Source of the DNA: a virus
IMG/VR virus record: IMGVR_UViG_3300045988_066894
Coordinates: 1-40,274 of that record
DNA: 40,274 bases
Reading direction: 5' to 3' (one strand)
This document shows positions 3,246 through 39,423 of the stretch, piece by piece (position 1 is the first letter of the stretch; every line of letters begins with the position of its first letter). Made by a program: the position numbers and the translations under genes. Under the pieces are notes generated by a model that was not told the origin of the DNA, did no database searches, and saw nothing but the letters and a program-made list of their open reading frames with translations.

Positions 3246-4349
3246 CTAGATGTGCAGGACTTGTCCTGGATAAATCAGATTCGGATTTGCAATGCCGTTT
3301 TTCGCGGCGATCGCCTGATAGGTCGTGCCATATTTCGCGGCGATGCCGCTCAACGTGTCGCCGGACCGCACCGTATAAGTCGTGCCGGCGGACTGTGCCG
3401 GAGCCGCCGCACCGCCGATGGCCAACACTTCGCCTGGATAGATCAGGTTCGGATTGCCGGAATGGAATCCGGTGATATGGGACTGAGCCACACCGAGCTT
3501 GGCGGCAATGCCGGATAGGGTGTCTCCAGGCTGGACGGTATACGTCCGACCGGAGGATGCCGGCTTTGCGAGCTTCTGATTCACCAAAGCCTGAACTGCG
3601 CCGTAACGCGCGCCAAGCTTCTGCTTGCGAGCATCGCCATCGCCGAATTCGCCTCGAATCACGGCATCGGCGAGATCGTCATCGGAACGTCCGGCGAGCG
3701 GATCGGAAGGCTGCGAAGGGGCGATATGCGAACCGTTTCCGCCACCGGTCACATACTTGTCGTAAACGGAACCATCGCCGTAGAACTTATTGAGATCCAG
3801 ATTCCCGCCGTAGCCGGGAAGACGGCCGGAAGAGGAATACTGGCGAATGACGCAAGCATAAGCGCCTTCGTTCCACGGCTTCGACTGATAGCCGGTGGGG
3901 TTCATGTTCGCGTACTGGGCGATCCACAGGCCGCAGTTCTGACGATTGGCGACAGCTGCGACCTGAGCATAGCGGGATGCCTGCACGTAAATGATCGGGG
4001 GGATTCCGGTACGGGCTTTCACCTGAGCGACGACCTGTTCGAGATAGCCCTCGTTGCCCCAAGCGGCATTCTCGTTGGATTCCCAATCGATGCAGAACAG
4101 GCCTTTGCCTATCCAATTGGCGCAATTGTCGACGAAGTAATTGGCTTCGGCGACGGCGTTGCCGCCTGAGACGTAATGATATACGCCGAAACGTTTTCCG
4201 GTTTGGCGGGCCTGTTCGATTTGTCGAGCGCAGTCGGGGGACACGTATCCCGTGCCCTGTGTGGCCTTAGCGATCACGAAATCGCAAGGCACTTTGGACA
4301 GGTCGATGCCCTGCTGCCAATTGCTGATGTCAATGCCATTCAAAGTCAT
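3246..4349 (-). CDS. endolysin: GH25 muramidase with two C-terminal LysM domains
   Basis: The N-terminus [18 protein letters not shown]...[11 protein letters not shown]...FGVYHYV is GH25-like. Two LysM repeats follow ([18 protein letters not shown]... and [18 protein letters not shown]...IYPGQVLHI). Start refined to MTLNG after GGGAAGGA. Confidence 0.9.
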
Positions 4350-4379
4350 GGCCAATCCTTCCCGCCCTCGATGCGAGGG

Positions 4380-4411
4380 CAATAAAAGGCCACCACGAAT
4401 GTGATGGCCTT
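4380..4411 (-). terminator. hairpin plus T-run just upstream of the endolysin (terminator or attenuator)
   Basis: On the minus strand AAGGCCATC-loop-GGTGGCCTT is followed by TTATTG. One mismatch in a 9-bp stem. Confidence 0.4.
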
Positions 4412-34532: not shown

Positions 34533-34747
34533 CTCGCTATCGTCCTCGTGTACTGGTGTGCTGTGGCCCAACGCTCGGCCACGTCACGCTCGTAAAGCAC
34601 CGGGCGCCTGTCCTGCTTGCCAGCTGGTGGTTCAGGGCCGAGCTTCAGATACTTCGGCCCCCTGCCATTGCTCCGCCAATTGGCGAGAGTGCGGGGACTC
34701 AAGCCGATCATCGCCGCGAACTCCTCCGGCCGAAGCAGGTCAGTCAT
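34529..34747 (-). CDS. MerR/excisionase-family HTH protein
   Basis: LLRPEEFAAMIGLSPRTLANWRSNGRGPKYLKLG. Confidence 0.65.
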   Translation of the reverse strand: MTDLLRPEEFAAMIGLSPRTLANWRSNGRGPKYLKLGPEPPAGKQDRRPVLYERDVAERWATAHQYTRTIAR

Positions 34748-35522
34748 TCGGCTTCTTCTCCGGGCAGTAGCGGGCGATGAAATAGCGCTGTCCCTTGCCG
34801 GTCACCTTCGGCGTGCGGCTGATGGTCACGTGGCCGTCCGAATGCGTCACCGCCGTCTCCTTGATGTGGAACAAGCCCAAGTCCATCGCCTTCTGGGTCG
34901 GCACGTTGCGGTTCGAGCTGGTCTTGCCGAGATAACCGTCCTGCCGAAGAATCTCGAAAAGTCGGTTCTGGCCGATGTTCAAGCCGTTCTGGCGCAGCAT
35001 CTTCGCCAATTCGCCGACAAGGCACGTGCCGTCCGACGCGGCCACCGCGTCCGCGAACCGCGCTTTCGGCTCCAGTTCCACGATGCGCGTCTGCTGTTCG
35101 GCGATGCGTCGCTTCTGCGCCTCCATGGTGCGTTGGCCGATCATCACGGCCTTCGCGAGGATGGTCATGTCATCGTCCGCGTCCGTGGTGGGGATGTAGC
35201 CGCCAGTCCTGCGAATCTGGGGAAGCACCTCATGCGTCACCCAACGCTGGAATTCCTTGGCCTCCGGCTTCCGCGAACGCATGATGAGCTTGTACAGGCC
35301 TGGCTCAGAGATGATAAGAGGCGCACGACCTGGCTGATTCCAAACCTCCGAATTACGGAGGTTTGTGATTTCGTCATCATCAAGAGCTTCGCGGAGATGA
35401 TTTGTGTCAATGCCGAGGATGTCACATGCGTCCTTGGCGACGAACCAAGGCTCCCCCGCTTCGTCGGTCAGGGCACGTAATGATTCGACCTTGAAATCGA
35501 ATCGCTGGATTTCATTGCTCAT
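34740..35522 (-). CDS. antirepressor (Bro-N plus KilAC/ANT domains)
   Basis: Start refined to MSNEIQRFDF after AAGGAAA. Has WFVAKDACDILG...EAKEFQRWVTHEVLPQIRRTGGY and a C-terminal KilAC-like part. Confidence 0.8.
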   Translation of the reverse strand: MSNEIQRFDFKVESLRALTDEAGEPWFVAKDACDILGIDTNHLREALDDDEITNLRNSEVWNQPGRAPLIISEPGLYKLIMRSRKPEAKEFQRWVTHEVLPQIRRTGGYIPTTDADDDMTILAKAVMIGQRTMEAQKRRIAEQQTRIVELEPKARFADAVAASDGTCLVGELAKMLRQNGLNIGQNRLFEILRQDGYLGKTSSNRNVPTQKAMDLGLFHIKETAVTHSDGHVTISRTPKVTGKGQRYFIARYCPEKKPND

Positions 35523-35551
35523 TGGGTTTCCTTTGCTTGTTGACGTTGTAG

Positions 35552-35797
35552 GCCCCGTCCTGACGAGTGGATGGGGCTGAGTGGCTGGCATTGGAGTCGA
35601 ACCGATGCCGTCCTTGGATTCCGAGCGCCCCTTTGATCGTTGGAACACGACCCGAACGTGTTCACGGCCAGTAGCGCGGCCGACGGTGACTGGCCGTCAG
35701 GCGGACTTGAAAGGGTTGCAAACACCGGAGTGCCTGCGTTTTTTTGATAGAGGAGAAGAAGATTGGAATCCGTGGGCGGGCGAACCGTCGCCCAGCC
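35552..35797 (-). ncRNA. structured non-coding leader containing a tRNA-derived T-arm/acceptor fragment and several perfect hairpins
   Basis: The minus strand reads GGCATCGG-TTCGACT-CCAATGCC-AGCCA (35582-35609). Abutting hairpins are GAACACG-TTCGGGT-CGTGTTC (35643-35663) and ACGGCCAGT-16nt-ACTGGCCGT (35664-35697). Further hairpins lie at 35552-35577 and 35778-35793. No ATG or SD occurs in about 440 bp. Confidence 0.45.
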
Positions 35798-35960
35798 GAA
35801 TGCGCCGACAGTGTATGTGAAGCAGGATGTGGTCGGCGCGTGGATAATAATCGATATTCAGTTATGTGTCCCCACTGGCCGACGAATGAGTGAACGTGGG
35901 TGTCCCGCGGAACAATCCGATTGGGTTGTTTGTTTGGACTGCCGGCCAGTGGGAAGTCTT

Positions 35961-36182
35961 TTAGTCGCGTGGCGCGAACCGCACGATCAGCCACAATGCG
36001 GTGGCGATGTACACGCCTTCCACCATGAGCGCGGCGGTGGTGCTGCCGCCATGCCAGGTGAGCATGATGGTCAGGCTGGAGATGAGGCCGATGCTGGCGA
36101 TGGCGAAGAGGATGCGGCGGCGCGTGTAGTTCGGCTTCCGCGTCTTCTCCCGCTCTTCGAGCCAGTAGTCGTGGTCGGTCAT
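35961..36182 (-). CDS. 73-aa two-TM membrane protein
   Basis: Start refined to MTDHDYW after AAAGGAGGA. TM segments ILFAIASIGLISSLTIMLTW and VEGVYIATALWLIVRF. Confidence 0.55.
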   Translation of the reverse strand: MTDHDYWLEEREKTRKPNYTRRRILFAIASIGLISSLTIMLTWHGGSTTAALMVEGVYIATALWLIVRFAPRD

Positions 36183-36385
36183 TTCGCCATCCTCCTTTCG
36201 GATAGTTCCTTCAAGATGCGGTTGCAGTCGCGGCGGATGTTCGCCAGGTCTGTCTGCGTGAGCAGGTATCGCGCGTGGCTGTCGCACGTGTCGATGGCGA
36301 GCTGGATGACGGCTGAATGGTCGCTGCGAGTGGTGCCGTCATCGAGGATTTCGAAGTAGAGGCTTCCATCCGTGGTGAGGCTCAT
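36179..36385 (-). CDS. hypothetical protein (68 aa)
   Basis: ORF in the coupled early operon. Confidence 0.5.
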   Translation of the reverse strand: MSLTTDGSLYFEILDDGTTRSDHSAVIQLAIDTCDSHARYLLTQTDLANIRRDCNRILKELSERRMAK

Positions 36386-36857: not shown

Positions 36858-37106
36858 TCAGGCTTTGAATTGTTTGATGCTGTCGATCGGCTGGATGAGG
36901 AGCATGACGAGGTTTTCTGGTTCCATGTCGAGCATGGATGCCGCTTTTTCGATCTCGTCCGTCGAGAGTGGCGTGTGGCCTTTGAGCCTGTTGTTTACGG
37001 CTCTGATTTCAAGGCCCCATGCTTTTGCTAGGTCTTTCGGTGTCTTGTCGTGTCTTGCGAGTTCCGCTTTGAGGTTTCTGCTGGCTGTTTCCGTCAGGCC
37101 GGCCAT
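36858..37106 (-). CDS. Cro-like XRE-family HTH regulator
   Basis: KTPKDLAKAWGLEIRAVNNRLKG. Divergent from the CI-like repressor across an operator region. Confidence 0.65.
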   Translation of the reverse strand: MAGLTETASRNLKAELARHDKTPKDLAKAWGLEIRAVNNRLKGHTPLSTDEIEKAASMLDMEPENLVMLLIQPIDSIKQFKA

Positions 37107-37340: not shown

Positions 37341-37703
37341 ATGGGAAGAAAAGCACAGGAGGTCACGCATTTCGCCAAGCAGGTCATGGACGAATGCGTC
37401 AGGCTCCAAAAGCAAAGCGGCATGACCATCAAGGAATTCGCCAAGGCCTGCGGCTTCGGCGAGGTCTACTGGTACACGAGAGCAAACTACAGCCTCCCGC
37501 TCAATCTGAGTGACCTGGAACGCATCAGCGAAGTGACCGGCGTGTCCATCGGAGACATCGTGATGGATTCCAAACGTCATGCGATTGAGGAAGCGGAAGC
37601 GAAGGCGCAGGCAGGCGGTTATGGTCTTGCCGCCTATAACGCTCAGGGCAAGCAGGAGGCCATTAATGGAGAGGCTGGGCCGGATTACGACGAGCCTGCC
37701 TGA
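37341..37703 (+). CDS. CI/ImmR-like XRE-family repressor
   Basis: MTIKEFAKACGFGEVYWYTRAN HTH. Followed by an overlapping ImmA-type protease gene. Confidence 0.75.
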   Translation: MGRKAQEVTHFAKQVMDECVRLQKQSGMTIKEFAKACGFGEVYWYTRANYSLPLNLSDLERISEVTGVSIGDIVMDSKRHAIEEAEAKAQAGGYGLAAYNAQGKQEAINGEAGPDYDEPA

Positions 37704-38505: not shown

Positions 38506-39300
38506 TTATATCTGCTTCAGGCGCTCGAATACCTGTGCCGTCTGTGCGGCATCGTCGGCGGCCCTATGACGCTCCGTCTTGGCGATGCCGAAATAGCGGA
38601 TGAGGTCGAGCAGCCTATGGCGGTCAAGCTGCGGCAAAAGTGTCTGAGAGATTTCCAAGGTGTCATAGAAGCTGACGTCCGGCATGCCGACACCCGCTCT
38701 TTCGGCTTCGCGGGCGATGACCGGCAGGTCGAAGCGGCGAATATTGTGCCCTATCCACGTATCATGCCCGCAGAAAGCGTAGAACTTTGGTAGCGCTTTG
38801 TCGATGGTGGGTTTGCCTTTGACGTCCCGGTCGGTGATGCCGGTGATCTGCGTAACCTTGGCCGGTATCGGAATCTGCGGGTTGACGAGCTGGCCGAATG
38901 ACGCGACCTTGCGCCCATGGCGCATGCGCACCGCACCAAGCTCGATGATCCGAGCGCTTCTACCCAATCCTGTGGTCTCGATGTCGATGGCCACGTAATC
39001 GTCGTAATCAGTTTCCGCGACATTTCCACGCTCCGTGTCGGCCGTCTCTGCCGTCTGCGTTGCCATGGCGTCCGATTGGGCTTCCTGAGACGGTTCAGGG
39101 GCATTCTCCGCTTGATGCTTATGGCGTGGCTCGGGCTTGAGGAAGAGATGCATGAAGAACCATGCGAGGAATGCGAGGAGCAGAATCGCAATGATGCTTG
39201 TGGCCAGATTATCCTGCGGTGTGGTGATGGTGTCGTATATGCCGTAGATGCCGGAGATTCCGCACAGCACGGATAGCACGAGGTAAATCAGTTTCTTCAT
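38506..39300 (-). CDS. membrane-anchored DEDDh (DnaQ/epsilon-like) 3'-5' exonuclease
   Basis: Start refined to MKKLIYL after GGAGAAGGAAGGGG. Two N-terminal TM helices, an acidic/Gln linker, then ExoI AIDIETTG, ExoII HNIRRFDLPVI and ExoIII HRAADDA. Confidence 0.75.
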   Translation of the reverse strand: MKKLIYLVLSVLCGISGIYGIYDTITTPQDNLATSIIAILLLAFLAWFFMHLFLKPEPRHKHQAENAPEPSQEAQSDAMATQTAETADTERGNVAETDYDDYVAIDIETTGLGRSARIIELGAVRMRHGRKVASFGQLVNPQIPIPAKVTQITGITDRDVKGKPTIDKALPKFYAFCGHDTWIGHNIRRFDLPVIAREAERAGVGMPDVSFYDTLEISQTLLPQLDRHRLLDLIRYFGIAKTERHRAADDAAQTAQVFERLKQI

Positions 39301-39423
39301 TTTTCCCCTTCCTTCTCCTTGCTTCAAGCTACCGCAGATGGGGATTGGACGTGCCGATTCTTTCTTTTTTCGGCGCATTGCGCCTTATAAAAAGAATGTT
39401 AAAACTTGTAGAGTCTTATATAT

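Follow-up and report, generated by a model that had tools for sequence, protein, structure and literature searches.

We have found that a gap between genes in the early region of a Bifidobacterium temperate phage contains a conserved structured RNA of 216 nt with a tRNA-like core. The gap lies at positions 35523-35960 of the 40,274-nt IMG/VR record IMGVR_UViG_3300045988_066894, which was analysed over its full length and is referred to here as the window. Comparison with homologous sequences establishes that the gap is non-coding, conserved and folded, that the strand that folds is the minus-strand transcript, and that the fold has tRNA-like features; the RNA family so defined is real, has no Rfam match and is widespread in Bifidobacterium phage contigs. 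An earlier note, made from the letters of the window, had described the gap as carrying a fragment of a tRNA T arm and acceptor upstream of an antirepressor gene. The relation to tRNA stands, but what is present is a complete tRNA-like fold and not a mere fragment. The likeliest explanation, although one that we consider no better than an even call, is that this RNA is excised from the early transcript by tRNA-processing enzymes, an event that would punctuate the operon ahead of an exchangeable gene and at the same time yield an RNA product. We note that a conserved, covarying RNA of ~200 nt in the early region of phages of a key human gut genus has thus far been overlooked by gene callers, ARAGORN and Rfam.

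A conserved non-coding gap with a tRNA-like fold

The gap had been called a hairpin-dense leader of about 440 bp without an open reading frame (ORF), and both parts of that description hold. Its 438 nt contain no conserved ORF: the three ORFs of the window that overlap it are intact in 19/52, 10/52 and 5/52 homologues, and of the 200 deletions found in the gap by comparison with the window, 172 span no more than 2 nt. On two metagenome contigs, genes called independently leave this same stretch of 438 nt empty. The sequence also folds far better than shuffled versions of itself, with z = -4.6 for the minus strand and z = -4.1 for the plus strand, and 0 of 100 shuffles were as good.

Homologues were collected with a 28-nt T-arm pattern (31 viral contigs), through relatives of the antirepressor (80 loci) and with an invariant 16-mer, CATAACTGAATATCGA (more than 117 loci). 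They fall into three sequence classes of the element, A, B and C, the last two of which were uncovered by the search with the 16-mer. The alignment of the gap and the RNAalifold consensus used 52 sequences (51 distinct homologues and the window), and pairs were counted in 55 class A sequences. Among the 51 distinct homologues the gap is 79-93% identical (BLAST); at collinear loci it is uniformly 73-88% identical, while each flanking gene is bimodal, with alleles of either ~82-97% or ~62-68%. In all, the element was found in more than 100 IMG/VR contigs of related Bifidobacterium phages. Its core has the following parts:

35582-35797, minus: tRNA-like structured RNA of 216 nt (RNAalifold consensus on the 52 sequences, then refined into helices)
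35792-35797 / 35583-35588, minus: P1, acceptor-like stem of 6 bp, GGCUGG/CCAGCC, with 100% of cells paired
35780-35791, minus: P2, mini D-like hairpin GCGA-CGGU-UCGC with a 4-bp stem and an invariant GG in the loop
35616-35778, minus: long arm opening into a four-way junction, with P3a at 35774-35778 / 35609-35613 and P3b at 35765-35771 / 35616-35622
35718-35737, 35679-35702 and 35626-35676, minus: P4, P5 and P6, branches of the junction together with P7
35643-35663, minus: P7, 7-bp stem with a 7-nt anticodon-like loop, on the distal branch P6-P7
35589-35607, minus: T arm, 6-bp stem with the loop UUCGACU
35582, minus: discriminator A

The two ends of the RNA come together as they do in tRNA. 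It had been proposed that GGCTGG at 35792-35797 pairs with CCAGCC at 35583-35588 and so closes a domain of about 215 nt, and this pairing is supported by covariation across the three classes; its third pair is C-G in 46 sequences and U·G in 15, and is never G·U. The T arm is the minus-strand hairpin GGCATCGG-TTCGACT-CCAATGCC, followed by AGCCA (35582-35609), to which the earlier note had drawn attention. Its loop has the consensus GGUUCGACUCC, with T54, C56, G57 and A58 invariant and either U or C at position 55; its stem, which carries a C·A mismatch in the window and is the perfect CCGATGCC in most homologues, covaries within class A and again in class B, as listed below. CCA is not encoded, the sequence after the discriminator being ACUCA. 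The invariant positions of P2 are G12, G13, T14, T15 and C16, and its loop is just 4 nt long (YGGU), compared with the 7-11 nt of a tRNA D loop, with the invariant GG standing where tRNA has G18 and G19.

In place of an anticodon loop the RNA has a four-way junction of ~143 nt, which explains why the window had not yielded a cloverleaf. P7, the perfect 7-bp stem with the loop UUCGGGU that had been noticed at 35643-35663, has the loop UUCAGGU in nearly all relatives, with U33/R37 geometry; it covaries at three pairs within class A (AU/GC, AU/GC and CG/UA), and all three classes retain its loop sequence GUUCAGGUC. Two further stems described earlier, at 35778-35793 and at 35552-35577, are likewise present. 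A 9-bp hairpin proposed at 35664-35697 fared less well: the perfect inverted repeat is there, but it is specific to the variant in the window, and most homologues pair these bases as P5 and P6. The stems of the top half differ between the classes as follows:

Acceptor stem: class A GGCUGG/CCAGCC; class B GGCCGCA/UGCGGCC; class C GGCUGC/GCAGCC
P2: class A GCGA-CGGU-UCGC; class B CACA-UGGU-UGUG; class C ACA-CGGU-UGU
T stem: class A AUCGG/CCGAU or ACUGG/CCAGU; class B ACAGG/CCUGU; class C CGCGGG/CCCACG

In every class the acceptor and T stems add up to a stack of 12 bp, as in tRNA, although the division differs (6+6 in classes A and C, 7+5 in class B). P3 of class B is an 11-bp helix, GGAUUCAUGCC/GGCGUGAAUCC, and the number of junction branches is equal in the three classes despite their differing sequence.

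Covariation among homologues, the check that the earlier note had set for its hairpins, finds the hairpin fold conserved. Within class A 97.3% of cells are paired, compared with 20-46% when partners are slid, and 9 pairs have changed on both sides. The joint alignment of classes A, B and C has 97.2% of cells paired (22-46% with slid partners); both sides have changed in 34 of its 60 pairs, against 12.9 ± 2.3 in shuffles (0 of 500 reach 34) and at most 11 with slid partners, and compensatory pairs occur in all 10 helices. A covariance model built from class A alone, R1, recovers classes B and C over their full length at 70-75 bits (E about 1e-20). A gapped pattern designed for further sequence classes returned only classes B and C, plus chance hits.

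The pair types also indicate which strand folds. Read on the minus strand, the pairs of the model comprise 189 cases of G·U and 67 of A·C (180 and 38 without the T arm), and a count over the whole gap gave 235 and 82. Since an A·C on the minus strand is a G·U on the plus strand, the excess of G·U identifies the folded molecule as the minus-strand transcript, which is the sense of the early operon, and argues against a site in duplex DNA. A role at the level of DNA, as a replication origin, a cluster of operators or a conserved linker that promotes recombination between modules, would account for the clustering of mosaic breakpoints at the edges of the gap, especially at the start codon of the downstream gene, and for an invariant A+T-rich box accompanied by TTATCCACG, which resembles a DnaA box; we note too that both strands fold well. 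We nevertheless regard such a role as very unlikely, given the bias of G·U-type variation to the minus strand and the fact that the compensatory changes keep pairing and not sequence. Moreover, TCCAC-type motifs are not enriched in the gap (P = 0.05-0.18), and no iterons were found in it.

Relationship to known RNAs

A search of the whole window against Rfam 15 at the gathering score returned no hit. At E <= 10 the region 35300-36200 gave chance-level matches only, with no tRNA, tmRNA or intron model among them; the class B region at E <= 1 likewise gave chance-level matches only, and a 67-nt deletion form of the element (see below) gave no tRNA match. ARAGORN, run for tRNA and tmRNA, reported 0 genes in the window and none at the tRNA-like units of 14 related loci. 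The bifidoprophage literature does not mention the element, and it is possible that it is listed anonymously in a catalogue of 10,006 viral candidate structured RNAs (PMC10690425).

The element resembles canonical tRNA (RF00005) in the order of its parts (acceptor 5' strand, D-like hairpin, long arm, T arm and acceptor 3' strand), and also in its 12-bp acceptor/T stack, 7-nt T loop, GG in the D-like loop and discriminator A. Unlike tRNA, it is 216 nt long, has a D-like loop of 4 nt and lacks an encoded CCA; the position of the anticodon stem is taken by P3 and the four-way junction, and the 7-nt loop of P7 sits on a 7-bp stem at a distal branch. With tmRNA it shares an acceptor/T-arm domain and an anticodon side on which a long helix leads to a large structured body. 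However, there is no G3·U70 pair, no conserved frame or tag and no predicted pseudoknot; typical tmRNAs are also longer than 216 nt. Because its third acceptor pair is C-G or U·G and it has no tag frame, the element is not a tmRNA.

Other RNAs carry tRNA-like parts outside the context of decoding. The bacterial Y RNA YrlA is circularly permuted with respect to tRNA; its tRNA-like domain is a substrate of RNase P and acquires CCA, evidence that mimics of this kind do engage tRNA enzymes, and YrlA is also found in phages of Actinobacteria (PMC4201824). YrlA and the element are thus both non-coding RNAs that mimic the top half of tRNA, but the ends of YrlA are paired on the anticodon side, its acceptor-like stem is closed by a loop and it bears the Ro60-binding motif GNCGAAN0-1G, whereas the ends of the element form the acceptor-like stem. 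None of the 30 window proteins scanned matched Ro60/Rsr (TROVE). A tRNA-like processing signal embedded in a longer transcript is known from the MALAT1-mascRNA module. In plant mitochondria, t-elements are tRNA-like structures in mRNAs that serve as cleavage signals for RNase P and RNase Z and thereby define mRNA ends (PMC1920247). By analogy, the t-elements may offer the closest parallel for how the element works, although both these systems are organellar or eukaryotic and small, and the element has a large conserved body that processing leaves unaccounted for. GOLLD and ROOL are large structured non-coding RNAs carried by prophages, often near tRNAs. The element does not match their Rfam models, is far smaller, and has its tRNA-like part as an integral and not an adjacent feature.

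The likeness of the 3' part to a tRNA T arm and acceptor, together with the anticodon-loop geometry of P7, might also be explained if the gap held the inert scar (a relic attP) of a tRNA-targeting integrase, as the earlier note had suggested, or a decoding tRNA interrupted by an intron; we find both scarcely credible. A search of one genome per species, for 185,579 species, with the pattern GGTTCGACTCCNNNGCCAGCC gave 86 matches, 0 of which are in Bifidobacterium; 0 of the 8 that were checked are tRNAs, the A+T-rich box is found at 0 of the 86 loci, and at least some matches fall in coding DNA, for example in a stretch encoding ...VWFDSGASH.... The att cores published for bifidoprophages, in tRNA-Met, tmRNA and dnaJ2, differ in sequence from the element (PMC6109161). 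The element is, furthermore, conserved and covarying, and the integrase gene of the window lies far off, at 43-1212. As no host tRNA was found to have this 3' end, and as the matching 5' acceptor strand covaries with it, the scar reading is refuted. A split tRNA, for its part, would need an arm of a length fit for decoding, and that of the element is too long; ARAGORN and the Rfam models for tRNA, tmRNA and introns gave no match, and an insert of ~143 nt seems too short for a group I intron.

Flanking elements, exchangeable genes and possible modes of action

The core is embedded in a set of conserved flanking elements:

35871-35954, minus: Pa, a long irregular hairpin directly after the stop codon of a 73-aa gene
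35851-35866, minus: A+T-rich box CATAACTGAATATCGA, in the spacer between Pa and Pb
35802-35839, minus: Pb, a hairpin 3-4 nt upstream of the tRNA-like 5' end (window stem GCGCCGAC/GUCGGCGC)
35552-35577, minus: Pterm, a hairpin that separates the tRNA-like structure from the ribosome-binding site, with ACUCGUCA as its loop of 8 nt
35520-35534, minus: conserved ribosome-binding site (RBS) AAAGGAAA and start codon (35520-35522) of the downstream gene

Pa contains an 11-nt perfect inverted repeat (35871-35881 / 35943-35953), and in the RNAalifold consensus its stem has compensatory pairs (UA/CG and GC/AU); G·U was counted 36 times in it against A·C 7 times. A different hairpin, CGGCUGAUGGC...GCCGUCAGCCG, occupies the site in loci such as L203. 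Pa may act as a terminator or insulator. The A+T-rich box is invariant in 52/52 aligned sequences and persists in classes B and C; candidate roles are those of a promoter core, a nuclease site and a site of protein binding. No conserved σ70-type promoter was seen by eye in the box on either strand. A promoter that had been suggested close by (GGGACA-17-TATTAT, 35844-35872) matches the consensus in the window, but its TATTAT (35844-35849) is replaced in about 15 of 51 homologues and the spacing of GGGACA varies by up to 6 nt. The A7 run noted earlier is present in the gap. The stem of Pb has been replaced three times in other classes and still pairs (GCCACGGC/GUCGUGGC, GCGCCUACG/CGUAGGCGC and GCGCUGGCG/CGCCAGCGC). 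The loop of Pterm, ACUCGUCA, is invariant, and in L106 the stem beneath it is wholly replaced yet paired (GCCAUGCUCC/GGAGCAUGGC); a similar loop, ACUCAUCA, sits on another stem in L137, L160 and L197, and Pterm is absent from classes B and C.

We note some further complementarities among these parts. In most class A loci (for example L008 and L097), though not in the window, the 3' arm of Pa at the equivalent of 35871-35883 is GUCGGCUGGCGGG. Within it, GGCUGGC complements the acceptor 3' strand GCCAGCC perfectly over 7 nt; it lies ~300 nt away and is a possible alternative partner that could give rise to a structural switch. The P7 loop (UUCAG, 35650-35656) is complementary to CUGAA in the A+T-rich box (35856-35860) and to CCUGA in the 5' strand of P5 (35696-35700), and CGUCA of the Pterm loop is complementary to UGACG in the same P5 strand. 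These loop complementarities are beyond the reach of covariation, since each is only 5 nt long and invariant. Matches to CATAACTGAATATCGA in 16 loci of unrelated phage contigs of low GC content (~37%; L122, L124, L127 and 13 others) were set aside as a chance match that close relatives have in common, their surroundings being dissimilar.

The element is not tied to one downstream gene. Class A elements are followed by:

Ant-like gene, 58 loci
112-aa protein, 43 loci
pentapeptide-repeat protein, 17 loci
104-aa protein, 4 loci
DNA C5-methyltransferase-like protein, 1 locus
100-aa protein, 1 locus

Whichever of these six gene families follows, a constant 59-60 nt separate the end of the tRNA-like element from the start codon, and in comparisons with relatives that have another downstream gene the homology ends sharply at 35516-35527, near the start codon. 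Such a pattern of swapping is typical of an exchangeable accessory or anti-defence slot. Because the six families are unrelated, we take the element to be not an antirepressor leader but a conserved module in front of an exchangeable accessory gene, and the earlier suggestion that the RNA controls the antirepressor specifically is not upheld. The element marks a recombination joint at which accessory genes are swapped within a few bases of their start codon, and so bears on how modules are exchanged in mosaic phages. We also observe that from L202:4216 and L091:1858 onward the element and RBS are followed by a 240-aa pentapeptide-repeat protein (with ADLRGADL repeats) and a DNA cytosine-C5 methyltransferase-like protein.

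The constant distance to a conserved RBS and start codon is also what might be expected if the RNA were purely a cis-acting leader, remaining in the mRNA and controlling read-through in the manner of put or nut sites, or else translation of the following gene. Pa, which is terminator-like and follows the upstream gene, would fit such a role, as would the covarying stem and invariant loop ACUCGUCA of Pterm, a pattern reminiscent of protein-binding hairpins such as boxB. Nonetheless, we consider this improbable: no intrinsic terminator with a U-tract was found in the gap, the sequence bears no likeness to put or nut and the Rfam searches were empty, Pterm is missing from classes B and C, no alternative pairing was found that would sequester the RBS, and antiterminator RNAs are not known to have a top half like that of tRNA.

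If the RNA is instead excised, as we think may well be the case, the steps can be outlined. The RNA would be transcribed as part of the early lytic operon, or else from a start in the A+T-rich box just upstream, and host tRNA-maturation enzymes would recognize the tRNA-like top half. RNase P would cut 5' of G35797, such that the upstream immediate-early mRNA would end in Pb, and a 3' tRNA-processing nuclease would cut after A35582, such that the downstream mRNA would begin with Pterm and the conserved RBS. A stable tRNA-like RNA would thereby be set free, on which the CCA-adding enzyme might then act, and its conserved branched body probably binds a partner. The structural prerequisites for processing by RNase P and RNase Z are present in the form of the 12-bp stack, the T loop and the G1-C72 pair. 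We infer transcription of the RNA, its cleavage by RNase P and a 3' enzyme, its stability and the existence of a partner; processing is expected in view of the factors that tRNA top halves are known to attract.

Several observations weigh against excision as an account of the element. The D-like hairpin has a loop of only 4 nt, which leaves a true tRNA elbow unproven. The T stem often contains C·A mismatches, and in the T arm A·C outnumbers G·U by 29 to 9. In the long-range helices P1 and P3 it is chiefly two divergent lineages, classes B and C, that supply the compensatory changes; these being the only two extra lineages, few independent events underlie those helices, and the joint alignment was fitted to the model. 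In addition, the element appears dispensable in some genomes. Deletion forms of 67 nt (L091:1792-1858 and L108:2874-2940) keep only the tRNA-like top half and a short hairpin, having lost the whole four-way junction between the near-repeats GGATTCCAA and GGAATCCAA as well as much of Pa, the A+T-rich box and Pb, which suggests decay in some prophages, and L137, L160 and L197 carry the module of Pa, box and Pb without the tRNA-like structure. Lastly, as RNase P needs the top half only, processing alone does not explain the conservation of the four-way junction and the P7 loop.

This last point makes a second, trans-acting role plausible. Both the processing RNA and the decoy that the earlier note listed among its readings are thus still viable candidates. 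The top half and the P7 loop might act as a tRNA mimic or decoy that occupies a host tRNA-binding factor and so protects phage development, a role compatible with excision that would add a function to it; we entertain it tentatively and with more doubt than confidence. Its target could be a tRNA-targeting defence, such as an anticodon nuclease, or else a modification enzyme or a synthetase. Classes that otherwise differ have retained the branched body and the P7 loop (GUUCAGGUC), which suggests a specific partner in addition to the processing enzymes. The element also lies in an early accessory region in which the alternative cargo includes pentapeptide-repeat and C5-methyltransferase-like proteins (both read from the sequence only). 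Proteins of these two kinds, pentapeptide-repeat proteins and DNA methyltransferases, can serve in anti-restriction or anti-defence. Several different non-canonical tRNA-like units occur in these phages, moreover, all with the T loop GGUUCGACUCC. On the other hand, no defence system was linked to the element and no partner was identified, the 7-bp stem of P7 at the end of a long arm is off the geometry of tRNA, and deletion derivatives exist that lack the entire body.

Taking excision and mimicry together, it is conceivable, if somewhat unlikely, that the element is the founding member of an undescribed family of large phage tRNA mimics, in which a tRNA top half is combined with an enlarged, branched domain on the anticodon side. 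Such mimics would be released from early transcripts by RNase P together with a 3' nuclease and would target a host tRNA-binding factor in trans; neutralizing a tRNA-targeting defence is one possibility for what they do. A tRNA part of the kind read by RNase P, RNase Z, the CCA-adding enzyme and several modification enzymes is here joined to a new four-way-junction body, which makes tRNA mimicry testable, and what is at stake is whether phages use such mimicry to punctuate operons or to engage host factors.

Genomic setting and further tRNA-like units

The only annotated relative of the phage from which the window derives is Bbif-1 of B. bifidum, and the part they have in common is the antirepressor gene only. 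All genes neighbouring the gap are on the minus strand, and the gene just upstream of it codes for 73 aa. The main features of the setting are:

36858-37106, minus: Cro-like repressor
between the Cro-like repressor and the gap, minus: four small ORFs
34740-35522, minus: Ant-type antirepressor with Bro-N and ANT domains, directly downstream of the gap
beyond the antirepressor, minus: excisionase-like helix-turn-helix (HTH) protein, then RusA, then a Prim-Pol replication protein
43-1212: tyrosine integrase, adjoining the lysis module
3246-4382: GH25-LysM endolysin (lysis module)

A divergent ORF at 37341-37703 was read from the sequence as a CI-like HTH protein. Since the integrase and lysis module lie opposite this putative repressor region, the window may be circularly permuted with respect to the classical prophage map, with attP near its left end. 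About 0.8 kb past the putative CI-like gene, at 38506-39378 on the minus strand, is a gene for a 290-aa protein with an RNase_T / DEDDh 3'-5' exonuclease domain that also matches the Rv2179c-like exoribonuclease; its N-terminal ~128 aa have no match, and any link between this protein and the 3' ends of the tRNA-like RNA is speculative.

The window contains a second tRNA-like gene at 25639-25787 on the minus strand, with a canonical acceptor, D arm and T arm, an encoded ACCA and an insertion of ~80 nt at the anticodon arm. That the gap shares GGTTCGACTCCA with this unit, as the earlier note had observed, is confirmed. The Rfam tRNA model, run in sensitive mode, gives this unit 42.9 bits; ARAGORN and the default Rfam scan overlook it. 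It has eleven homologues of 144-157 nt that form two subtypes. It lies just upstream of an ORF read as HNH-like and of genes read as terminase (neither with a Pfam match).

Phage annotation has a blind spot here: this group of phages contains at least three more non-canonical tRNA-like units. Class B phages (L184:7868-8380 on the minus strand, and other class B loci) carry three tandem units, of which the main one is 196 nt long; downstream of it are units of ~75 nt (GACGUGG...CCACGUC) and 81 nt (GCUGGUG...CACCAGCA), the last of which ends 27 nt before a start codon. All three share the T loop UUCGACU, and ARAGORN and Rfam fail to recognise any of them. If these units are indeed tRNA mimics, related phages would carry whole arrays of them. 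In other phages the slot that lies 100-150 nt upstream of the Ant homologue is occupied by tRNA-like units of different kinds. Two examples, both missed by ARAGORN, are an acceptor/T-arm RNA of 105 nt with one long hairpin at L061:2797-2901, ~100 nt upstream of an Ant homologue, and a 102-nt sequence at L058:2748-2849 that has the appearance of a class II tRNA-Leu(UAA), long variable arm included.

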